The notes beneath the pieces are model-generated. The model saw nothing but the letters and a program-made list of their open reading frames with translations. It was not told where the DNA came from and ran no database searches. 64,000 bases of DNA from an uncultured Candidatus Saccharibacteria bacterium (GTDB taxonomy: Bacteria > Patescibacteriota > CPR2 > UBA1875 > CAIMLA01), in the NCBI GenBank assembly GCA_964594415.1, contig CAZQLQ010000004.1, positions 19,162-83,161 on the forward strand, in the 5' to 3' direction. The position numbers were made by a program, and so were the translations under genes. This document shows positions 4,287 to 32,714 of the stretch, piece after piece. Each line of letters begins with the position of its first letter. The first letter of the stretch is position 1.

Positions 4287-4403
4287 GGCTGATTATTTTT
4301 TCTTTGAGAAAACTTTAAAACAAATAAATTCCATTAATGAAATAAAAAAATATATTACGACTTCAAATAACGCTATATTTAAATCATAATCAAATATTTG
4401 TAT

Positions 4404-4532
4404 TTACAGAGTTCTCGTTATAAGCAGGTTTGAATTGTCAGGCGATGCATAAAAGGAATAGAAGACAAATAATACTGAAGCAAAAAAAGAGATAATTAAC
4501 CTTTTTTTTGATATAAAGTTCCATTTTTTCAT
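4404..4532 (-). CDS. candidate 42-aa hydrophobic micro-protein (MKKWNFISKKRLIISFFASVLFVFYSFYASPDNSNLLITRTL)
   Basis: not in ORF track (too short); GGAGGGTG Shine-Dalgarno 3 nt upstream of ATG; one predicted TM helix; lies in AT-rich non-coding stretch downstream of tRNA-Gln. Confidence 0.25.
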   Translation of the reverse strand: MKKWNFISKKRLIISFFASVLFVFYSFYASPDNSNLLITRTL

Positions 4533-4615
4533 ACACCCTCCAATTTACTATTATTCTACAATAAAAAATAAAATATAGTTAGCAGAACCTCTAATTTGTA
4601 AGATATAATAGGCTC

Positions 4616-11941: not shown

Positions 11942-12919
11942 ATGTTTGAACAAAAAAATTTTTTAGAGTTTTTAAAAAACAAAAAGCTTGTATCAATAAT
12001 ACTTTTTCTCATTGTAATGGCCGGCATCTCCCTGACGATAAATAATTACAGAAAAAACGCAGATACAGCTATTTCAGCCAGTGCTAATAGTATTGTGGAT
12101 AATGAGAAGTATGCAATAGACGAAAACACGAAAAACTTTCATCCGTCTTTTGAATGGCTTCAGGAAAATCCTCAAGACATAGATGTCACAGCGAATTCTG
12201 CAATTGTTATTGACGAGAATACTGGAAATGTTCTTTTTGCAAAAAACGAACATGACAGCCTACCTCCAGCAAGTATTACAAAAATCATGACAGCAATTAT
12301 TGCGAGTGAAAACATTAATAAAAACGATCTCTGTACTGTATCGGAAAAGGCCGCTGCCACTGAGCCAAACAAAATAGTCATGAAAGAGGGGGAGCGGTTA
12401 AGATCCGAGGATTTACTTTATGGGTTAATGATGATCTCAGCAAACGACGCAGCAGAAGTACTTGCCGAATCAATAGACGGCAACAGACAAACCTTTATAA
12501 ATCTTATGAATGAGAAAGTTAGACTTCTGGGCCTAAATAGTACTGATTTCAAAAATCCGAGTGGACTAGATGAAGAAGGGCACCTATCAAGTGCCTTTGA
12601 CATTGCAGTGATGACAAGATATGCGATAAAAAGTTACCCTGAAATTCTCAGCTATATGGGAGAAAAAGAGGATTACAGCGTATACCCAACAGAAGAAAAC
12701 GAATCTCACTGGTGGAGCCATATTAGCAGTCTCTTATATAATTACCGTGGTGCTGATGGGGTTAAGACAGGCTATACCGAAAACGCGAATCACACGTTAA
12801 TAGCAACAGCACAAAGAGAGGGAAAAAGAATTATTATCGTTTATTTTGGATCAAGTGATTCTACGGGTGATGCGGTTAAACTATTAGACCTTGGATTTTC
12901 AATTAATACAGGTGTATAA
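11942..12919 (+). CDS. D-alanyl-D-alanine carboxypeptidase (PBP5/peptidase S11-like)
   Basis: SxxK 'SITK', SxN 'SAND', KTG 'KTGYT' motifs in canonical order; N-terminal signal/anchor. Confidence 0.8.
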   Translation: MFEQKNFLEFLKNKKLVSIILFLIVMAGISLTINNYRKNADTAISASANSIVDNEKYAIDENTKNFHPSFEWLQENPQDIDVTANSAIVIDENTGNVLFAKNEHDSLPPASITKIMTAIIASENINKNDLCTVSEKAAATEPNKIVMKEGERLRSEDLLYGLMMISANDAAEVLAESIDGNRQTFINLMNEKVRLLGLNSTDFKNPSGLDEEGHLSSAFDIAVMTRYAIKSYPEILSYMGEKEDYSVYPTEENESHWWSHISSLLYNYRGADGVKTGYTENANHTLIATAQREGKRIIIVYFGSSDSTGDAVKLLDLGFSINTGV

Positions 12920-21613: not shown

Positions 21614-22735
21614 TTGTCAAGTGTTTTTATGAAAAATTGTGGAAAAAAATTAGAAAAAATTAAATATTGGCTTTCCATAGGTAAAAACGTTAAGATTGGA
21701 CCCTGTGGATTTAACGAAATTTTGGCTACAAACGTGTCTTTTGAAGAAATTTGGCACATGAATATTAATAGCCTTAAAAGCTTAAAATTACCTGAAAGAT
21801 TAATCTCTGAGATAATTCATGCTAGAGAAAACTATAATCCCGATGAGGTAATAACAGAGCTTGTCGGTAATGGAATAAACGCGATCACTATAAAAGACGA
21901 TGATTACCCGGAGCAACTAAGACAAATCTATAACCCTCCACCAATCTTGTACTACAAAGGAACTTTTGATAAGGATGAGATATTTATCGGTATTGTCGGA
22001 AGCAGAGTGCCAACCGACTACGGCGCTTCTTTAACAAGAGAGATTGCTTACAATCTTTCTAGAGCTGGGATAACAGTGGTAAGTGGTCTAGCTCTTGGCA
22101 TTGACGCTATTGCAAATAGTTCGGCGCTTGACGCGCAAGGACGAACAATAGCCGTTTTAGGATGTAGTTTGGAAAGAATATACCCCTCTACAAATAGAGA
22201 TCTAGGGGAAAAAATAGTTAGCTCCGGGCTTGGAGCAATTATAAGCGAATATCCCGTTGGCACTATTACGCAAAAACAACATTTTCCCGCAAGAAACAGA
22301 ATTATAAGCGGATTATCTATAGGATTAGTAGTCGCAGAGGCTGCAGAAAATTCAGGTTCCCTTATAACTGCCTGTTCAGCCTTGGAACAAAACAGAGAAG
22401 TATTTGCATTTCCAGGCTCAATTTACAATAAAAATTGTAAGGGTACAAATAATCTCATAAAGAACGGCGCGCACCTAATAACTAACGCAAACGATGTCTT
22501 GGATGTTCTTAATCTTATAACTCCCAAAGAAATCGTAAAAGCAAGGAAAATTTTACCGAGAAATACTGACGAAAAAACTATTTTCGAAATATTAAATGCA
22601 GAGCCACTACATATAAACGAAATAATAAAGAGAACGAATTTACCGCAAGCAAAAATAAGTTCCGTATTGACTTTAATGGAAATAGAAGGTAAAGTTAAGC
22701 ACTTAGGAGGAATGGTCTACAAACTCAGTATTTGA
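21614..22735 (+). CDS. dprA: DNA processing protein A (DprA/Smf)
   Basis: Rossmann-like 'GIVGSRVPTDYGASLTREIAYNLSRAGITVVSGLALGIDAIAN'; upstream of topA as in many bacteria. Confidence 0.85.
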   Translation: MSSVFMKNCGKKLEKIKYWLSIGKNVKIGPCGFNEILATNVSFEEIWHMNINSLKSLKLPERLISEIIHARENYNPDEVITELVGNGINAITIKDDDYPEQLRQIYNPPPILYYKGTFDKDEIFIGIVGSRVPTDYGASLTREIAYNLSRAGITVVSGLALGIDAIANSSALDAQGRTIAVLGCSLERIYPSTNRDLGEKIVSSGLGAIISEYPVGTITQKQHFPARNRIISGLSIGLVVAEAAENSGSLITACSALEQNREVFAFPGSIYNKNCKGTNNLIKNGAHLITNANDVLDVLNLITPKEIVKARKILPRNTDEKTIFEILNAEPLHINEIIKRTNLPQAKISSVLTLMEIEGKVKHLGGMVYKLSI

Positions 22736-22786
22736 CAATAAAACAGATATTTTTTTAATATTATTATATTGTTAACAAAGGATAAA

Positions 22787-24790
22787 ATGAGCAATCTCGT
22801 AATAGTAGAATCGCCAGCCAAGGCGAAAACAATTGAAAAGTATTTAGGCTCGGGATATAGAGTCTTAGCTTCATTTGGTCATGTTCGCGACCTGCCATCA
22901 AAAGAGATGGGAATAGATATAGAACACGGTTTTTTTCCGACTTATGTAGTTCCGACAAAAAGCAAGAAAACAATAAAAGCGCTAAAAGACGCTGCAAAGG
23001 GAACGACTACTGTTCTTCTCGCAAGCGACCCAGACAGAGAGGGTGAGGCGATAGCATGGCACATAAAAGAGGCGTTAAAACTAAAAGACAGTCAGTACAA
23101 GCGTATTGTTTTTCACGAGATTACTAAAGATGCCATAAACGATGCGGTGAGAAATCCTCGAAAAATAAATATTGATTTAGTTGATGCCCAACAAGCAAGA
23201 AGAATTCTGGACCGTTTAGTAGGATACACCTTAAGTCCACTGTTATGGAAAAAAGTAAAAAAAGGCCTTTCGGCAGGCAGAGTGCAATCGGTTGCGGTAA
23301 AGCTAATAGTTGACAGGGAAAGGGAAATTCAAGCCTTTGTGCCAAAAGAGTATTGGGAGATTAGAGCAAACCTTGAAAAAATCGATAGCCGAGAAGGGTT
23401 CGAAGCGAAGCTAACAAAATACCAAGGCAAGAGCTTAGAAATTTTAAACAAGGAAGCAGCCGATAGGATCCTGGCCGATTTAAGGAATAGCGACTATAAA
23501 GTATTAAAAGTTGAAACAAAAGACGTAAAAAGGTCTCCGGCTTCACCCTTTATCACCTCTACCCTTCAACAAGACTCGACAAACAAATTACGTTACAGTG
23601 CAAAAAAAACAATGATGCTTGCCCAACAGCTTTATGAAGGTATCGAATTGGGAAGTGAGGGATCAACTGGTCTTATTACCTATATGAGAACCGACTCACA
23701 CAACCTATCAAACCAAGCACTTGATGAGATAAAAAATTACATAATAAATAATTTGGGCAAAGAATACTTGCCTGAGAAAACAAGAACATTCAAAAAAGCA
23801 AAGTCTGCCCAAGAGGCTCATGAAGCCATAAGGCCAACTTCTATTGCGAGAACTCCTGAATCCTTAGCTAATTACCTAACAAAGGATCAGTTAAGATTAT
23901 ACGAACTAATCTGGAAAAGAACTATAGCCTGCCAAATGGCTGACGCTATATATTCCCAAACCGGAGTTGACATATTAGCTGAAGAATATGGTCTACGTGC
24001 AGGCGGAAGAACCATCAAATTTGACGGTTTTATGAAAGTATATCTCGAAGGAGAAGCAGAAAAAGAAGCTGAAGACAAAGCTGAAAGCAAAATTCCCACT
24101 TTGAAAGAAGGAGAAATAGTAGACCTAAAGGAGCTTTTGAGCGATCAGAAGTTTACAGAACCACCACCCCGATACACTGAAGCCTCGCTGATTAAAACTC
24201 TCGAAGAAAACGGTATCGGACGTCCATCAACGTACGCACCCACGATCTCTACCATTCAAGACAGGGGCTATGTAAGACTAGAAAACCGCCGTTTTTTCCC
24301 GGAAGAAATCAGTTTCATTGTGACTGATTTACTAAGAGATCACTTTCCATTTGTTGTAAGCGTAGACTTTACGGCACAACTCGAAAATGAGCTTGACGAT
24401 ATTGCTGAAGGAAAAACAAAATGGGCAGAAACTATCAAAAACTTTTGGAATCCATTTAAACAAGATCTTGATAAAGCCATAACTGCTGTAGAAAAAGTTA
24501 AGATCGAGAAAGAGACAGATGAAGTCTGTGAAAAATGCGGCAAGCCAATGGTTATCAAACTAGGGCGTTTCGGAGAATTTCTTGCTTGCACCGGTTTTCC
24601 TGAGTGTAAAAACGCAAAGCCCTTACCTGCAAAAGACTTGGGACTCAAATGCCCTGAATGCAAAGAAGGAGAAGTAGTTGAAAGACGAACAAAAAAGGGC
24701 AAAAAGTTCTGGGGCTGCTCCAGATACCCCGAATGTAAATATGCAACTTGGAACGACCCGACTAAACAGAAAAGCGAAGAAATCGAGTAG
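22787..24790 (+). CDS. topA: DNA topoisomerase I with C-terminal Cys4 zinc ribbons
   Basis: TOPRIM 'LVIVESPAKAKTIEKYLG…SFGHVRDLP'; active-site region 'GLITYMRTDS'; C-terminal 'CEKCGKPM…CTGFPEC…CPECKEGE…CSRYPEC'; ATG 22787 with AAGGA SD. Confidence 0.9.
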   Translation: MSNLVIVESPAKAKTIEKYLGSGYRVLASFGHVRDLPSKEMGIDIEHGFFPTYVVPTKSKKTIKALKDAAKGTTTVLLASDPDREGEAIAWHIKEALKLKDSQYKRIVFHEITKDAINDAVRNPRKINIDLVDAQQARRILDRLVGYTLSPLLWKKVKKGLSAGRVQSVAVKLIVDREREIQAFVPKEYWEIRANLEKIDSREGFEAKLTKYQGKSLEILNKEAADRILADLRNSDYKVLKVETKDVKRSPASPFITSTLQQDSTNKLRYSAKKTMMLAQQLYEGIELGSEGSTGLITYMRTDSHNLSNQALDEIKNYIINNLGKEYLPEKTRTFKKAKSAQEAHEAIRPTSIARTPESLANYLTKDQLRLYELIWKRTIACQMADAIYSQTGVDILAEEYGLRAGGRTIKFDGFMKVYLEGEAEKEAEDKAESKIPTLKEGEIVDLKELLSDQKFTEPPPRYTEASLIKTLEENGIGRPSTYAPTISTIQDRGYVRLENRRFFPEEISFIVTDLLRDHFPFVVSVDFTAQLENELDDIAEGKTKWAETIKNFWNPFKQDLDKAITAVEKVKIEKETDEVCEKCGKPMVIKLGRFGEFLACTGFPECKNAKPLPAKDLGLKCPECKEGEVVERRTKKGKKFWGCSRYPECKYATWNDPTKQKSEEIE

Positions 24791-25793: not shown

Positions 25794-27086
25794 ATGAAGG
25801 ACAAAACTCTTTTTGAACAAAAAAATTATACAGAAAAACCACTGGCAGACAAAATGAGGCCAACTGACTTTTCGGATTTTTTTGGACAAGAACACTTATT
25901 AAGTGAAAACAAACTATTAAGGCAACTAATTGAAAATGATAAGCTAGCCTCAATAATTCTTTGGGGACCGCCCGGAACAGGAAAAACCACTATCGCAAAA
26001 ATAATAGCAACTAAGACAAACTCCTTTTTTGAGGAGTTTAGTGCTGTGACAAGCGGAATAAACGACCTAAGAAAAGTCGTTAGGGAAGCAGATGACCGTA
26101 GGAAACTTTATAACCTTAAAACTATTCTTTTTGTTGATGAAATCCACCGTTTCAACAAATCCCAGCAAGACGGATTTCTACCTCATATAGAAAATGGAAC
26201 TATTATTTTAATAGGCGCCACTACCGAAAATCCTGGTTTTGAAATAAACGCAGCTCTACTTTCTAGATCTAGAGTATTTCAGTTAAATCCGTTAACCGAA
26301 GAGGATTTGAAAAAAATAATAAATAACGCACTTGCAGATAAAAAGAAGGGTTTAGGGGAAAGAAAACTAAGGATTGAAAATTCTGCCCTTATTCACTTAG
26401 CTAAAACATCTTCAGGAGACGCAAGAACAGCGCTTAACGCACTAGAGATAGCAGCATCAATCGCCAAGGGCGATCGTAAAATCTCTGATGAAATCATCAA
26501 AATGGCTCTAGACAAAAAACAACTGGCTGCGTATAAAAAAGGCGAAAGTCACTACGATTATATTTCCGCCTTTATTAAATCTATGAGAGGTAGCGATCCC
26601 GATGCGGCGATTTACTGGCTTGCATTAATGCTTGAGAGCGGAGAAGACCCTAAGTTTATTGCAAGGAGAATGATTATCTTTGCAAGCGAAGATATCGGAA
26701 ACGCTGCACCAATGGCATTAGTTTTAGCTACTTCTTGCTTTCAAGCAGTGAATATTGTAGGGCTACCCGAAGCCAGAATAAACCTAGCTCAATGTACAAC
26801 TTATTTAGCAAGCGCTCCAAAATCTAATTCGTCGTACTTAGCAATTGAGGAAGCACTCACTGACGTAAAGAACCTCGAAACGGGGCAAGTTCCCAAGCAT
26901 CTTAAAAACGCTCCTACAAGGTTTTCCAAGGAAATTGGTAATGCAAAAGGATATAAATACCCTCACGATTATCCTGGAAACGTAGTCAAACAAGACTACT
27001 TGCCGGAGAATATTAAACATAAAAAGTATTACAAGCCGACAGAAAACGGGGGAGAAATCAAAATAAAAAACAGGCTTAAAAAATAG
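25794..27086 (+). CDS. rarA: replication-associated recombination protein A (AAA+ ATPase MgsA/RarA)
   Basis: Walker A 'GPPGTGKTTIAKIIA', Walker B 'ILFVDEIHRFNK', sensor 'TTENP'. Confidence 0.85.
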   Translation: MKDKTLFEQKNYTEKPLADKMRPTDFSDFFGQEHLLSENKLLRQLIENDKLASIILWGPPGTGKTTIAKIIATKTNSFFEEFSAVTSGINDLRKVVREADDRRKLYNLKTILFVDEIHRFNKSQQDGFLPHIENGTIILIGATTENPGFEINAALLSRSRVFQLNPLTEEDLKKIINNALADKKKGLGERKLRIENSALIHLAKTSSGDARTALNALEIAASIAKGDRKISDEIIKMALDKKQLAAYKKGESHYDYISAFIKSMRGSDPDAAIYWLALMLESGEDPKFIARRMIIFASEDIGNAAPMALVLATSCFQAVNIVGLPEARINLAQCTTYLASAPKSNSSYLAIEEALTDVKNLETGQVPKHLKNAPTRFSKEIGNAKGYKYPHDYPGNVVKQDYLPENIKHKKYYKPTENGGEIKIKNRLKK

Positions 27087-27179
27087 TTATTCGTAAATAT
27101 ATTTTAAATATTACTGCTGTATAATTATTTATTCTGTTTTATTTTTTAACTATCTAAATATGTTTTAGTAAATAACATA

Positions 27180-27209
27180 TTGACACTAAACTATTAATTA
27201 TGCTATAAT
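27180..27209 (+). promoter_or_regulatory. consensus σ70-type promoter
   Basis: TTGACA (27180–27185) – 18 nt – TATAAT (27204–27209), ~38 nt upstream of ATG 27247, in AT-rich spacer. Confidence 0.55.
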
Positions 27210-27246
27210 TATTCAGGTTAAAAATATATGACCATAAGTAAAAAAA

Positions 27247-28341
27247 ATGGAAAACGCAGACTCAATTTTAAATAGAATAATCGAAATAGAAAGTAAGAAA
27301 AAATTACGTGATTTTGATGTAGAATCAGAAGTTTCTTACATTTTTTCTAATTCTAAAATCGGCAAAGACAGAAATATCAATATTATTAAACAGCGTAACG
27401 GCCTTTCTGGAGAAAAACCTAAAACTTTAGGCGAAATTGGCAAGGAGCTAAACATTACCAGAGAGAGGGTACGACAAATTGAGAAGGCCGTTCTGAAGAG
27501 AATACAAACCTTTATTTCAAAGGATTCTCGTATTCAAGGGGTTATCTCGGTAATAGAACAAAAAATTTCAGCAAATGGAGGAGCGGTTAATATTAATGAT
27601 CTCTATGGGATCTTTCTTGATTCTGATCTTAAAAGCCCTAAAAAAAGACACATGCTTATATTCCTTACAACCCTAAGCAAGAATCTATCGCAAATACCTG
27701 AAAGCTCTAATATAAGAACAGGTTTCATCCTCAATACGATAGATACTAATCTAATCGATAAAGTGATAGATGTAGCTACAGAAACCCTAGAAGAAGAAAA
27801 AAAGCCAGTTGAAGAAAGAACCTTTCTAAAAAACATAAAGAAACACGACCTTAAAATAAAGGATCGCCTAATTATTGCTTTGATATCTCTTAGTAAAAAA
27901 ATTATCAGAACCGAAAAGGGACACTTAGGCCTTGCATATTGGAGAGAAATAAACCCAAAAAGCATCAGAGATAAGACATATTATGTTCTTAAAAAATACC
28001 AAAAACCATTACATTTTAACGATATATCAAAAAACATTGAGGACCTTGGAGACAAAAAGAAGGTAACCAAACAAGCTGTTCACAACGAACTTATTAGAGA
28101 TGAGAGATTTGTCCTTATCGGGAGAGGGATTTATGCTCTTAGCGAATGGGGTTATGAAGGTGGAGTAGTGGAAGAAGTTATCGAAAAGGTCCTAATAGAA
28201 GCTGGGAAACCACTCCATAAAGATGTTATTATAGAGAAGGTACTTCAAAGAAGAATAGTGAAAAAAACAACCGTACTCTTAAACCTTCAGAAGGACCGTT
28301 TCGAAAGAGTTGCTCGCGGAACCTATACAATTAAAAAATAA
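27247..28341 (+). CDS. σ70-region-4-like HTH fused to two tandem HARE-HTH (RNAP δ/RpoE-type) domains; putative transcription-associated DNA-binding protein
   Basis: 364 aa; residues ~60–95 'TLGEIGKELNITRERVRQIEKAVLKRI' match σ70 r4.2; C-terminal 'KPLHFNDISKNI…VHNELIRDERFVLIGRGIYALSEW' and 'GKPLHKDVIIEKVL…LQKDRFERVARGTYTI' match the HARE-HTH pattern (…D.RF..vGRG.Y.L.EW). Confidence 0.5.
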   Translation: MENADSILNRIIEIESKKKLRDFDVESEVSYIFSNSKIGKDRNINIIKQRNGLSGEKPKTLGEIGKELNITRERVRQIEKAVLKRIQTFISKDSRIQGVISVIEQKISANGGAVNINDLYGIFLDSDLKSPKKRHMLIFLTTLSKNLSQIPESSNIRTGFILNTIDTNLIDKVIDVATETLEEEKKPVEERTFLKNIKKHDLKIKDRLIIALISLSKKIIRTEKGHLGLAYWREINPKSIRDKTYYVLKKYQKPLHFNDISKNIEDLGDKKKVTKQAVHNELIRDERFVLIGRGIYALSEWGYEGGVVEEVIEKVLIEAGKPLHKDVIIEKVLQRRIVKKTTVLLNLQKDRFERVARGTYTIKK

Positions 28342-28355
28342 GGGGGATTTACATT

Positions 28356-31300
28356 ATGCAAGACATAATCTCTGCCGTTATTAGTGGCATGTGGTTTTTA
28401 ATTGTTTGGACTTGGTGGATTGTTGTACCAATAATTCTTTATTATGCATGGAAAAATTTTAAAAAAGCCGAATATGTTGATAAGACTGAACACGAGGTTT
28501 TGTCGATAAAAATCCCAAAAAACAACGACAAGGGACCAATTGGGGCAGAGATGATGTTTGCATCTCTTCACGGGATATTACAGCCAGAAAGCGTAAGACA
28601 AAAAGGAGTTACCGTCCAAGAACATATCAGTTTTGAAATTGTAGCAACTTCTAGCTCAATTGAGTTTTTTGTTTGGACACCAAAACAACTTACCAACTTT
28701 GTTGAAGGCCAAATATACGCCCAGTATCCAACCGCCGAAATAACAAAAGTCAAGGATTATTCGCAAAATATCGACATCGACGACGATAAGATAGATGATG
28801 CGATTGCAGGAACTGAGCTAAGATTGCTAAAAGACGATATCTACCCGATAAAAACTTTTCAAAATTTTGAAGTAGATCCACTTGCCGGAATAACAGGAAT
28901 GCTTTCAAATCTCGAAGAATCAAGCGAAAAGATTTGGATTCAAATATTGGCGAGGCCGGTAGATGATAATTGGAGAGAGAAAGGTATTGGACACATCTCA
29001 GTAAAAAAGAGCGGAGTAAAACCACAAACAACAAAAGACCTCTTGAAAGAAGTCCTGTTAATGCCGATTAAAATCATACCAGAACTAATAACCATGGCAG
29101 TCAACCCCGGGGCCGAAACTAAGAAAGAGGAGAAAAAGGAAACTCCTAAGCTTTCACATGCAGAAGAAGCTGAGCTCTCAGCTATTGAACTCAAAGCTAA
29201 CAAGCTTGGATATAAAGTAATTATAAGAATTACTTATCTTGCAAAAAATACGGAAAAAGCAGTAGAACGGATTCAATCAATAGTCGGAGCATTTAAACAA
29301 TTCAATACGACAAATTTGAATGGCTTTGCATCAGAAAAAATCTACAGTGGCACCGATTTTTTAAATTCATATCGCGCAAGGCTATTTAACGAAGAAGGTT
29401 ATATACTGAATATTGAAGAGCTTGCGAGCCTTTACCATTTACCAAATATTACCGTGGAAACACCAAATATCGTTTGGACATCTTCGAAAAAAGGGGAACC
29501 GCCTGCAAATGTTAGATTTGTTGATAATACCCCAGATGAAAAAATAGATCCCGATATAACTCTTTTAGCACAAACAACCTACAGAGGCCAGAATAAGCCT
29601 TTTGGAATAACTCGTGATGACCGCAGAAGACACATGTATATAATAGGGAAGAGCGGAACCGGAAAATCAAGACTGTTAGAAAATCTAGCAATATCCGATA
29701 TTCAAAAAGGGGAGGGAGTAGCGATAGTTGATCCTCACGGGGAATTAATTGATAGAATATTGAAATATATTCCAAGAAACAGAATTGACGATGTAGTATA
29801 TTTCAACCCCGCAGATAGAAACTTTCCAATCGCTTTTAATCCGCTAGAGTGTACGCCCGACATGAGGGAAGAAGTCGCTAATGGCTTTGTTTCCGTATTA
29901 AAAAGAATGTTTGGGTATTCATGGGGTCCCAGATTGGAATATGTCCTTAAGCATACTGTTTTAGCACTTGTAGAAGCTGACGATACTACTATGCTAGGAA
30001 TTGTCAGAATGCTTACCGATAGAAATTATAGAAAAAAGGTAGTTTCTCAGGTAACAAATCCTGTCGTACAAATGTTTTGGCTCAAAGAATTCGCTTCGTA
30101 TAATGACAAGATGGCCACAGAAACAATAGCTCCAATATTAAATAAGGTGGGACAATTTACTTCCTCTGCGGTAATTAGAAATATTGTTGGACAAGTAAAA
30201 AGCAACATTGATTTTGCTAAAATCATGAACGAACAAAAAATCCTGTTAGTTGATCTTTCAACTGGAAAAATTGGGGAAGCAAATTCAGAGCTTTTAGGAT
30301 CTATGATTATTACAAAGATACAGCAAGCGGCGATGTCCAGAGCTTATATTCCTGAAGAGGAAAGAAAAGATTTTTATCTATATGTTGATGAATTTCAAAA
30401 TTTTGCCACAGATTCGTTTGCTACAATCCTTTCAGAAGCCCGTAAATATCGCTTATCGCTCACGGTGGCTAACCAATATATTGCTCAAATGGAAGAAACG
30501 GTAAGAGATGCTGTATTTGGCAATGTCGGCACCTTAGTCTCTTTTAGAGTAGGAGCCACGGATGCGGCTTTTTTGGAAAAAGAATTTGCAGGAATATTTC
30601 TTCAAAATGATATAACCAATCTTGATAATCGTCATATCTACTTGTATATGCTGATAGACGGCGTTACGAGTATTCCATTTAGCGCCATGACACTAAACTC
30701 TCCTCATATTACCGACAATCTTTCAACGATTATCACTGCAGTTTCCAGGGAAAGATACGGAACACCTCTTGCTTCAGTTGAGGAAGCTATTAAGAAGTGG
30801 TACGGGGTAGATAATGTTATTGCTGGAATTGAAGCAAACGAAAACAGACAACAGGAAGTCTATATTGATTCCTCAGCAGAAAGTCAAGTTAATACAACAA
30901 CTATAGAACAGGAATATAGGAAATATTTAAAAGAACTGGAATTAAGTCAAATTGAAGATGACAATAAAAAGAAAGGCGAATCAGAACAAAACAGAAAGCC
31001 CGCAGAAAAAAATAAGGCAGAGGAGCCAAAGCCACAACCCAATAAAATAATCCCAGAGATAATAACAGAAAAAACAAACAAAGACTCTGAGGAAACCTCA
31101 GCTTCTATCTCAAAAATTGACAATAAACCCGCCGTAAAATTAAATAATGATAATGTTAAGCAGATTAAAGTCGATAAGAATGAACTTAAAAAGCTTATCA
31201 AAGAACTTACCACCCCTACTCCTAAAAATGAGGAGAGTACCAACGAGAAGAAGGAAGAATTAATTACTGATACGCATAACATTCCCCCTATCAATCTTCC

Positions 31301-31412
31301 TGGAAAGAATAGGGAAGAAGAGGCCATAGAAATAATTAACACAAATTCCGCTATAAACAAAAAACAAGCAGGAGAAAATGAGCTCAAACCAGGAGATATA
31401 ATTAAATTTTAA
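28356..31412 (+). CDS. membrane-anchored VirB4/VirD4-family (TraG/TraD/TrwB-like, AAA_10-type) P-loop ATPase with long disordered K/E/N/T-rich C-terminal tail
   Basis: 1018 aa; N-terminal hydrophobic anchor 'ISAVISGMWFLIVWTWWIVVPIILYYAW'; ~390-aa soluble domain; Walker A 'IIGKSGTGKS', 'AIVDPHGELIDRI' (T4SS-ATPase DPxGE-type motif), Walker B 'YLYVDEFQNF', 'RKYRLSLTVANQYIAQMEETV…GNVGTLVSFRV' (T4CP/VirB4 C-terminal motif); last ~240 aa low complexity; AAGGGGGA SD 14 nt after preceding gene. Confidence 0.55.
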   Translation: MQDIISAVISGMWFLIVWTWWIVVPIILYYAWKNFKKAEYVDKTEHEVLSIKIPKNNDKGPIGAEMMFASLHGILQPESVRQKGVTVQEHISFEIVATSSSIEFFVWTPKQLTNFVEGQIYAQYPTAEITKVKDYSQNIDIDDDKIDDAIAGTELRLLKDDIYPIKTFQNFEVDPLAGITGMLSNLEESSEKIWIQILARPVDDNWREKGIGHISVKKSGVKPQTTKDLLKEVLLMPIKIIPELITMAVNPGAETKKEEKKETPKLSHAEEAELSAIELKANKLGYKVIIRITYLAKNTEKAVERIQSIVGAFKQFNTTNLNGFASEKIYSGTDFLNSYRARLFNEEGYILNIEELASLYHLPNITVETPNIVWTSSKKGEPPANVRFVDNTPDEKIDPDITLLAQTTYRGQNKPFGITRDDRRRHMYIIGKSGTGKSRLLENLAISDIQKGEGVAIVDPHGELIDRILKYIPRNRIDDVVYFNPADRNFPIAFNPLECTPDMREEVANGFVSVLKRMFGYSWGPRLEYVLKHTVLALVEADDTTMLGIVRMLTDRNYRKKVVSQVTNPVVQMFWLKEFASYNDKMATETIAPILNKVGQFTSSAVIRNIVGQVKSNIDFAKIMNEQKILLVDLSTGKIGEANSELLGSMIITKIQQAAMSRAYIPEEERKDFYLYVDEFQNFATDSFATILSEARKYRLSLTVANQYIAQMEETVRDAVFGNVGTLVSFRVGATDAAFLEKEFAGIFLQNDITNLDNRHIYLYMLIDGVTSIPFSAMTLNSPHITDNLSTIITAVSRERYGTPLASVEEAIKKWYGVDNVIAGIEANENRQQEVYIDSSAESQVNTTTIEQEYRKYLKELELSQIEDDNKKKGESEQNRKPAEKNKAEEPKPQPNKIIPEIITEKTNKDSEETSASISKIDNKPAVKLNNDNVKQIKVDKNELKKLIKELTTPTPKNEESTNEKKEELITDTHNIPPINLPGKNREEEAIEIINTNSAINKKQAGENELKPGDIIKF

Positions 31413-31880
31413 CATTTATAATTTAATTGCTATTAAGCACAACAATTATAAAAAGCAGACTAAAGGCTAACATCCCCTAATCCCTTCAAAATATATAGAT
31501 CAATAATGTTCTAAAAATTTAATTACTTAGGATAGATTTAAGAAAGGGAAGAAAACAATTATAATGTCGCACAATATATCTTGGACGACATTTAACATTT
31601 CCGAAATCTTGCTAACGTCTGGTTATTTAATTTATAAAAATAGTCTTTTTATTTATAGAGAGCCAAAATATGTAAGCATACACTAGAGTAATAGTATAAC
31701 CATAGTTAGGTTCTAGCAAATAATATTTAATTGTTATAAAAATTATTTATATTATTATTTAATATTTATTTTAAATTTAAAAAGCTGGATGCTCTCTCGA
31801 TTTTATTTAGGCCTAAATAAATAATTAATTATTTATTTAATTAATTATTAGGGGACTCCCCTGTCAGACAATGATTCCGT
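31413..31880. other. 468-bp extremely AT-rich convergent intergenic region with several inverted repeats
   Basis: no ORF on either strand; AATGTCG-N16-CGACATT (31563–31592); long A/T palindromic tract (31812–31848); GGGGACTCCCC (31851–31861) followed on minus strand by a U-rich run (probable ftsQ/dcw terminator). Confidence 0.5.
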
Positions 31881-32714
31881 TTATTTATAAAAAATTTTAT
31901 TTTCTGCGCGGAGATCCACATACTCCAACTTGACGCCTTTATTTTTCGCGTCTTGTATTATCCTTGATAGATTAACTAATTGACTTTCCGCATTATATTC
32001 AGGATTAAAGTAAGCATACCAGCCTGCATCTGTAATAACTTTCATTTCGTCAATTGTATTGATAAGCTCAATGCTCCTGACCTCCACCTCTGCTAAACGA
32101 AGGAAATCAATATTAATTATATTTATCAAATTAATCAAATTACTGTTAAACGACTTGGAACCGTTTTCAATTTCTAAGCCTCTATTATCCTTAATTAAAG
32201 GCACATTTGAATATTTTTCATCTTCTAATAAAAACGCGTAGCCGTTTTCATCAATCAAAAATCGGCCCTTTGGATGTTCAAGTATAAAGATTGGTCCTCT
32301 TTCCTCAATTTCAATAGCTATCTTATTTGGGAGTCTTCTAATTATTTTGATATTTTTAATTGATGGTGAATACTGAATTTTTTCAGCTAACTTAGAAGTA
32401 TTGATCGTAACAATGTTTCTGTTAAAAAAACTCTTAATAAATTCCTGGGATCTGGTGAGTACAATTTCTCTGTCGATATAGACCGTTTCGCCGATTTCCA
32501 CTTCCTTTACCATAAAGACTGGGGAGAAAAAAACTAGATAAACCAATCCGAAAAGCAAACAAAGAAAAGATATTAAGCCAAGATTAACCTTCCTCTGTTT
32601 GCCCTCCATATCTGAGGTTCGATTATAGATCGCTGGTTGCCTATAAGTCTTTTTTCTTCTATTAAAATTCCGAGGTCTAACTTGTTTTCTCATATTCTTG
32701 TTTAATTTCTGCAA
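31881..32714 (-). CDS. ftsQ: cell division protein FtsQ/DivIB (POTRA domain)
   Basis: single TM 'LISFLCLLFGLVYLVFFSPVF' then POTRA-like 'VKEVEIGETVYIDREIV'; last gene of dcw cluster; start uncertain (overlaps murG end). Confidence 0.7.
   Translation of the reverse strand: MQKLNKNMRKQVRPRNFNRRKKTYRQPAIYNRTSDMEGKQRKVNLGLISFLCLLFGLVYLVFFSPVFMVKEVEIGETVYIDREIVLTRSQEFIKSFFNRNIVTINTSKLAEKIQYSPSIKNIKIIRRLPNKIAIEIEERGPIFILEHPKGRFLIDENGYAFLLEDEKYSNVPLIKDNRGLEIENGSKSFNSNLINLINIINIDFLRLAEVEVRSIELINTIDEMKVITDAGWYAYFNPEYNAESQLVNLSRIIQDAKNKGVKLEYVDLRAENKIFYK

Follow-up and report, generated by a model that had tools for sequence, protein, structure and literature searches.

A helix–turn–helix protein and a coupling-protein-type ATPase with a VirB4-like predicted module form a core operon of the candidate phyla radiation

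The 64,000-nucleotide stretch analysed here (the window), from contig CAZQLQ010000004.1 of an uncultured Candidatus Saccharibacteria bacterium of the CPR2 lineage, contains two adjacent genes for a helix–turn–helix (HTH) protein of 364 aa (gene 1) and a membrane-anchored ATPase of 1018 aa (gene 2). The pair is a known but uncharacterised core operon of the candidate phyla radiation (CPR, Patescibacteria). New are the VirB4-like fold predicted for the N-terminal part of the ATPase, the fission of its gene, the conserved promoter and gene order, and the homologues at coupling-protein positions on plasmids. The ATPase is composed of a transmembrane (TM) anchor, a module resembling the VirB4 N-terminal domain (NTD), a motor like that of type IV coupling proteins (T4CPs), and a disordered tail. 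Its motor almost certainly belongs to the T4CP (VirD4/TraD/TrwB) class. We favour, with some confidence, the reading that gene 2 encodes a chromosomal, exapted coupling-protein-type translocase, probably hexameric and membrane-docked, most likely acting on DNA.

CPR bacteria account for much of the diversity of bacteria, and the majority of the genes that are conserved specifically in their lineages are functionally uncharacterised. The HTH–ATPase pair ranks with the best conserved of them, at 37–53% identity across classes over about 800 residues, and its orthologues SEML1_0294 and SEML1_0293 are present in Southlakia epibionticum, the only genetically tractable CPR bacterium. A supposed mobile island becomes a defined target comprising a T4CP-type motor, a VirB4-like module and an essential DNA-binding protein encoded in the same operon. 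Our literature search returned no paper naming DUF8128, the family of the N-terminal module, and no description of the HTH–T4CP operon or of a VirB4-like fold of DUF8128.

Architecture of the ATPase

The features of gene 2 are listed below in window coordinates.

28356–31412, + strand: gene 2, membrane-anchored ATPase of 1018 aa with a DUF8128 module and a T4CP-type core (translation of the open reading frame (ORF), profile and PDB matches)
28368–28451, + strand: single N-terminal hydrophobic anchor, residues 5–32, followed by the basic stretch KNFKK (read in the translation)
28473–29510, + strand: DUF8128 (PF26449) module, residues ~40–385, with a VirB4-NTD-like predicted fold (database annotation; AlphaFold2 model and Foldseek)
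29562–30800, + strand: P-loop ATPase core of the FtsK–HerA superfamily, T4CP type, residues ~403–815 (Pfam; TrwB, PDB 1e9r)
29646–29669, + strand: Walker A motif GKSGTGKS, residues 431–438, conserved in 37 homologues
30375–30395, + strand: Walker B motif YLYVDEF, residues 674–680, with Y676 to F680 invariant in 37 homologues
30801–31409, + strand: low-complexity tail rich in K, E, N and T, from about residue 816, unconserved in sequence and length
31383–31409, + strand: short motif LKPGDIIKF at the extreme C-terminus, with related termini in many orthologues across classes

Two coupling-protein profiles of Pfam match the motor above their cut-offs: TrwB_AAD_bind (PF10412) over residues 421–726, with an E-value of 1.3e-10 and 41.2 bits against a cut-off of 20.5, and TraG-D_C (PF12696) over residues 674–738, with 27.0 bits against a cut-off of 22. 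A DUF87 match (27.4 bits, cut-off 23.2) overlaps the stronger T4CP match. In NCBIfam, partial matches are obtained to SXT_TraD and TOL_TraD, together with a weak one to CedD. The best sequence matches in the PDB are TrwB (1e9r, 1.6e-8) and DotL (8e-4), with HerA at just 0.02, and the Walker A and B motifs and their flanking motifs align with those of TrwB. This agrees with a first-pass annotation, made from the DNA sequence, which had placed the protein in the VirB4/VirD4 family, and favours that branch over FtsK or HerA. Of the profiles that the annotation had proposed for a check, TrwB_AAD_bind and TraG-D_C are matched, while CagE_TrbE_VirB and AAA_10 (Pfam, E ≤ 0.1) and FtsK_SpoIIIE are not. 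The last gave no match as PF01580, nor did PF17854, PF09397 and PF13491. PF12846 is recorded for just a few homologues of gene 2. No NurA-like neighbour is found in the window or in the loci of four close relatives.

The motifs quoted in the same annotation, GKSGTGKS, DPHGE, VDEFQNF and RKYRLSLTVANQ, are all present in the translation. Residues G431, G434, G436, K437, D678, E679 and Q707 are invariant or near-invariant among the 37 homologues. Alignment of the full gene 2 family by hhalign gives weak matches both to a single VirB4 (E-value 0.012) and to TraG (0.0037). In the ATPase core, 340 columns are aligned with TraG versus 68 with VirB4, mildly favouring a T4CP.

The hydrophobic segment at residues 5–32 provides the N-terminal membrane anchor expected of a T4CP, and by the positive-inside rule everything beyond it would lie in the cytoplasm. 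Between anchor and motor lies DUF8128, assigned to PF26449 through the precomputed annotation of an identical database protein (P0001). An AlphaFold2 model of this module (pLDDT 78, pTM 0.74) was compared with known structures using Foldseek, where 14 TrwK/VirB4 chains rank at the top with E-values from 1.8e-5, a probability of 1.00 and TM-scores of 0.40–0.44. By this model, the module is predicted to fold like the NTD of VirB4. A PDB profile search using DUF8128 gave nothing meaningful. For the orthologue from S. epibionticum, the published structure-based table lists no domain in residues 1–360 (PMC10633639).

The tail shows a per-column identity of about 0 and many gaps in the homologue alignment. 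Its last residues are recognisable in orthologues from the related loci (L001–L083), as PGExIxF in CPR2 and numerous Parcubacteria, and elsewhere as hydrophobic-x-hydrophobic-x-F/H/R, which suggests that this peptide is a docking motif. The type of tail-end motif shows no clear correlation with adjacency of the HTH gene. The Wildermuthbacteria orthologue carries a zinc-ribbon-like insert, CxxC...PVYCxxC, in its tail (L073: ~12560–12650), which is absent from the window protein.

The operon, its promoter and its flanks

Gene 1 and the elements that join it to gene 2 are as follows.

27180–27209, + strand: sigma-70-type promoter, with -35 TTGACA, an 18-nt spacer and a TG-extended -10 TATAAT (read in the sequence)
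27247–28341, + strand: gene 1, HTH protein of 364 aa (ORF translation)
27379–27507, + strand: Sigma70_r4 HTH, residues 45–87 of the gene 1 product (Pfam, above the curated cut-off)
27970–28149, + strand: HARE-HTH winged helix, residues 242–301 of the gene 1 product (Pfam, above the curated cut-off)
28342–28347, + strand: Shine–Dalgarno sequence GGGGGA, 8 nt before the gene 2 ATG (read in the sequence)

The first-pass annotation of the two ORFs, their strong Shine–Dalgarno sequence, the membrane anchor, the low-complexity tail and the domains of both proteins holds throughout, with the domain calls borne out by Pfam profiles above their cut-offs. The stop codon of gene 1 (TAA, 28339–28341) is separated by 14 nt from the ATG of gene 2 at 28356, a gap that is 3 nt in the related loci L001 and L002. 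Upstream of gene 1, TTGACA (27180–27185) and TATAAT (27204–27209), the latter preceded by TG-c (TGnTATAAT), form the sole 12/12 match to the consensus in the interval 26900–32000. Of 46 loci, 36 have a sigma-70 promoter close to the consensus, in many cases TG-extended, at 6–85 nt upstream of the HTH gene; among random segments, the figure is 19 of 400. As had been noted, the pair is tightly coupled and has a promoter of its own; genes 1 and 2 are an operon, co-transcribed from a strong and conserved promoter.

The two spacers flanking the pair, of 160 bp and 468 bp, are as AT-rich as first described, with 16% and 25% GC. These flanks, the separate promoter and the distant homologues on plasmids are compatible with a self-contained orphan cassette for translocation that was gained by horizontal transfer, as the first-pass annotation had proposed, but we consider this reading hardly credible. 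Coding sequence shows no compositional anomaly, the GC content of gene 1 (34.1%) and gene 2 (36.9%) being that of the window (36.8%). Moreover, dprA (21614–22735) and topA (22769–24790), correctly recognised upstream at the outset, belong to a neighbourhood that is itself conserved. The order dprA–topA–(x)–HTH–ATPase, followed by the convergent genes ftsQ–murG–ftsW–mraY, is shared by the window and four relatives whose ATPases are 47–71% identical to that of the window, and the arrangement up to ftsQ–murG–ftsW recurs in Saccharibacteria, CPR2 and WS5. The acquisition reading is refuted because the pair is kept in this housekeeping context and has the GC content of its surroundings. In addition, both protein families are CPR-wide, core and Patescibacteria-enriched, and the plasmid relatives are just 25–31% identical. 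A comparable AT-rich, ORF-free spacer of 329 bp and 25% GC occurs elsewhere in the window (4287–4615); therefore, long AT-rich spacers are not unique to the HTH–ATPase locus.

31413–31880, no strand: AT-rich non-coding spacer of 468 bp, 25% GC, between convergent genes, at a switch of strand and GC skew

The longer spacer, also read at first as a mark of acquisition, coincides with the convergence of gene orientation and GC skew. To the left of the spacer (up to 31412), all window ORFs of at least 120 aa lie on the + strand, and to its right (from 31881) all lie on the - strand. The GC skew is +0.070 to the left and -0.197 to the right of the spacer, with a peak of the cumulative skew at about 31 kb. 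The spacer is a candidate replication terminus, which would offer an ordinary explanation for its length and AT-richness as an alternative to acquisition. The position of the skew switch is not conserved in Saccharibacteria. Rfam gave no match in the spacer, and a dif site was discarded, as a degenerate pattern finds none there and its two matches elsewhere are at chance level. A 30-nt imperfect palindrome is located within the spacer (31563–31592).

An alternative reading is an FtsK/SpoIIIE-like pump that would clear the chromosome or process its terminus at the division septum, recognising DNA through the multi-winged-helix protein as a subunit. Gene 2 encodes a membrane-anchored motor of the FtsK–HerA superfamily, is convergent with ftsQ–murG–ftsW in several classes and, in the window, is located right at the convergence of gene strand and GC skew; the winged helices of the gene 1 product also recall the FtsK gamma domain. 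We regard such a role as very improbable. Besides the missing FtsK_SpoIIIE match, the S. epibionticum genome encodes, alongside the orthologue of gene 2, an FtsK of canonical layout (SEML1_0096; four TM segments, alpha, motor and gamma) that is essential (PMC10633639). The skew flip is absent in most relatives, the S. epibionticum pair lies about 280 kb from dnaA, and genes such as secF and rplI are found next to the ATPase gene in other classes. With a canonical essential FtsK coexisting and neither skew flip nor chromosomal position conserved, gene 2 was rejected as an FtsK replacement or terminus motor.

Distribution in the CPR and homologues on plasmids

Homologues of gene 2 number more than 7485 in the database searched. 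All of the best 120, which were inspected, carry PF26449 and show 46–72% identity along their full length. A scan of GTDB with one genome per species yielded at least 600 loci, and the best 80 of these, with 37–53% identity over about 800 residues, represent some 15 named lineages of the CPR, namely Saccharibacteria, Nomura-, Peregrini-, Peri-, Dojka-, Morani-, Magasanik-, Buchanan-, Doudna-, Uhr-, Falkow-, Abawaca-, Gracili-, Wildermuth- and Daviesbacteria. Homologues at 37–72% identity are present in essentially all CPR classes. The DUF8128 profile covers 3958 cluster representatives, in a fused form of 850–1130 aa and a stand-alone form of 410–550 aa. The HTH–ATPase operon is almost certainly a vertically inherited core feature of the CPR, near-universal in Patescibacteria.

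A published survey (Quinonero-Coronel et al. 2025, PMC12102498) covered 3,035 Patescibacteria genomes and reports 5,713 VirD4-type T4CP homologues in 2,918 genomes (96%) and VirB4 in 2,417 (80%). Just 148 of the 5,713 T4CP genes are near virB4 and relaxases are almost absent, with 109 in the whole set. The authors leave room for exaptation.

Among the 74 loci with enough upstream DNA, 42 have the HTH gene directly upstream of the ATPase gene and on the same strand. Loci without it have neighbours such as secF, rplI or a gene with a LytR_C domain, and never T4SS (type IV secretion system) genes. A defence system was considered and set aside, since PADLOC gives generic domain matches alone (mad8, HerA, MzaA) and no defence context. 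In the loci L010 (4945–7359), L041 (1167–3575), L052 (5842–8109) and L059 (1575–4004), a second full-length paralogue, 35–37% identical to the window protein, is found nearby or in tandem. This paralogue may be the counterpart of SEML1_0142, a second T4CP-like protein of S. epibionticum that is essential (PMC10633639).

In Parcubacteria-type loci, the gene is split at a variable linker corresponding to residues ~386–402 of the window protein, giving one product with the TM segment and DUF8128 (~430–550 aa) and another with the ATPase (~550–660 aa). Examples are L056:10001–13219 and L073:10001–12967, with about 12 other loci of this type. The N-terminal DUF8128 module is separable from the motor, as the fission at the linker demonstrates.

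Beyond the CPR, tblastn of gene 2 against plasmids matched 609 records at 25–31% identity, the majority from Bacillus, Streptomyces, Staphylococcus, Clostridium and haloarchaea. In 42 of them the match extends over at least 80% of the query and takes in the DUF8128 part; coverage reaches 88–92%. Firmicutes plasmid proteins annotated as 'DUF87 domain-containing' (B. subtilis CP120602.1 and Shouchella clausii NZ_CP012476.1) are homologous over their full length, again with a DUF8128-like part. When the CPR alignment is compared with the B. subtilis protein by hhalign, the probability is 100% and the E-value 1.7e-40 over query residues 93–781. The haloarchaeal plasmids (L086) show the same split between the DUF8128 and ATPase genes as the Parcubacteria.

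On the Firmicutes plasmids, the homologues (L085:11830–14571 and L088:8842–11493) occupy the position of a coupling protein, with a relaxase-like gene ('replication-relaxation') followed by TcpC/D/E-like genes. On the S. clausii plasmid (L088), a VirB4-like ATPase of 837 aa follows the TcpC/D/E-like genes. The corresponding VirB4-like gene of the B. subtilis plasmid is unannotated and would cross the start of the record. While these plasmid homologues adjoin relaxase-like, TcpC/D/E and VirB4-like genes, the CPR protein is encoded among housekeeping genes and behind an HTH gene. MOB-suite types both Firmicutes plasmids as non-mobilizable. The combination of a VirB4-like NTD with a T4CP-like motor in one lineage, spanning the CPR and plasmids of Firmicutes and archaea, bears on the kinship of VirB4 and the coupling proteins.

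Function and comparison with known motors

The gene 1 product consists of a sigma-70 region-4 HTH and four winged helices, one of them the HARE-HTH. No match to sigma region 2 or 3 is found in Pfam or NCBIfam, and all sigma-factor equivalogs of NCBIfam are far below cut-off, so that a sigma factor of the sigma-70 family is ruled out. The protein was also rejected as a delta subunit of RNA polymerase (RNAP), RpoE. It scores 37.8 bits against TIGR04567, the delta-subunit equivalog, below the cut-off of 42 bits, and its C-terminus is a further winged helix and not an acidic tail. A literature search on HARE-HTH together with sigma found nothing relevant to bacteria.

Transposon sequencing (Tn-seq) of S. 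epibionticum (Wang et al. 2023, Cell; PMC10633639, Tables S1/S2) provides genetic data on the orthologous pair, which has the same domains and the same gene order (dprA–0297–topA–0295–HTH–ATPase, with one gene on either side of topA). Its ATPase has 921 rather than 1018 aa, with PF10412 at residues 402–719, and downstream lie a GNAT gene and cas9 instead of the convergent dcw cluster. Both SEML1_0294 (Sigma70_r4 and HARE-HTH) and SEML1_0293 are flagged there as core, Patescibacteria-enriched families. SEML1_0294 is essential (ES/ES/ES), whereas SEML1_0293 is non-essential (NE/NE/NE), with normalised reads that drop from 5817 to 1372 over the passages. Because S. epibionticum can dispense with the motor orthologue but not with the HTH orthologue, the HTH protein must have a role of its own, which is probably a general one on RNAP or DNA. 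This departs from the first-pass view of gene 1 as a dedicated partner of the ATPase, as does the lack of adjacency in many loci. The HTH protein may additionally act as an adaptor that presents DNA to the motor, in analogy to TraM for TraD and TrwA for TrwB.

In the reading we favour, gene 2 would encode a membrane-docked, probably hexameric, ATP-driven receptor or translocase of a polymer, most likely DNA. Taken by itself, the assignment of DNA as the substrate stands at about an even chance. In the CPR, such a motor would have lost its link to relaxase and T4SS genes while its gene was retained in the chromosomal core, and its function would be dispensable in laboratory co-culture.

Several observations weigh against this reading or parts of it. 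The protein has one predicted TM segment, compared with two typical of VirD4, and any all-alpha domain like that within the nucleotide-binding domain of T4CPs would lie in the span of the PF10412 alignment (421–726). The likeness of DUF8128 to the VirB4 NTD comes from one AlphaFold2 model of moderate confidence with TM-scores of just 0.40–0.44, and an hhalign comparison of DUF8128 with A. fabrum VirB4 gives a probability of 0.2%, with no link at the sequence level. Relaxase genes and those of a mating-pair-formation T4SS are not found within 10 kb in the window and the 83 related loci, and channel, pilin and VirB3/VirB6/VirB8-type genes are not adjacent to gene 2 in any of these; for the window, an absence of adjacent T4SS or relaxase genes had already been noted. 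Oligomeric state, substrate, direction of transport and any contact of the motor with the HTH protein are inferred. A specific adaptor role of the HTH protein is speculative because its gene is not adjacent in 32 of the 74 loci and its orthologue is essential, while that of the motor is dispensable.

The genetics also bear on whether gene 2 encodes the genuine coupling protein of a CPR T4SS encoded elsewhere, often near dnaA, and feeds it DNA or protein bound for the host cell. We consider this rather unlikely. T4CP genes are indeed often unlinked from virB4 (PMC12102498), the T4SS cluster of S. epibionticum lacks a recognisable coupling protein (PMC10633639), the plasmid homologues of gene 2 are located in T4SS clusters, and the VirB4-NTD-like module might attach to the partners of VirB3 and VirB8. 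However, the T4SS is essential in S. epibionticum, yet SEML1_0293 is non-essential at all time points, and the essential paralogue SEML1_0142 is a better candidate for the coupling protein of that system. T4CP homologues are also more widely distributed in the CPR than VirB4, and the near-absence of relaxases (PMC12102498) argues in the same direction.

A cytoplasmic motor for DNA uptake in natural transformation, replacing ComFA at the ComEC channel, is quite improbable. CPR bacteria are naturally competent, and ComEC, a C-type ComF and DprA are non-essential in Tn-seq, as is this ATPase. The weak match to CedD, an archaeal DNA-translocating ATPase, would suit an uptake motor. A text search of the annotation in the S. 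epibionticum tables finds no entry for ComFA or ComEA, the absence of ComFA being judged from that search alone. There is no gene-level linkage of gene 2 to comEC. The presence of dprA in the conserved neighbourhood is weak evidence, because adjacency of dprA and topA is common across bacteria.

A further possibility, which we hold to be unlikely, is that the HTH protein and the DUF8128–T4CP motor form a CPR-specific, T4SS-independent device for DNA translocation, for instance an inner-membrane motor for DNA uptake or for the release of chromosomal DNA. The HTH protein would select the DNA and dock on the tail-end peptide of the motor, and the VirB4-like module would couple the motor to a membrane partner.

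Compared with the delta subunit of RNAP, the gene 1 product has three further winged helices, and its orthologue is essential in S. epibionticum. With VirB4 (TrwK of R388; PDB 7o42, 7o43 and 8rtd), gene 2 has no detected sequence similarity in the NTD, and its core aligns better with that of the T4CPs. The T4CPs (TrwB of R388, VirD4, TraD, TraG and DotL) have in common with gene 2 the core profiles, the motifs and the N-terminal membrane anchor, and the disordered C-terminal tail with a conserved short end peptide resembles that of TraD. Gene 2 differs from them in the VirB4-NTD-like module of about 350 aa inserted between anchor and motor, and in its genomic setting: close to it there are neither relaxase nor T4SS genes, and it belongs to the chromosomal core of a phylum-level radiation.

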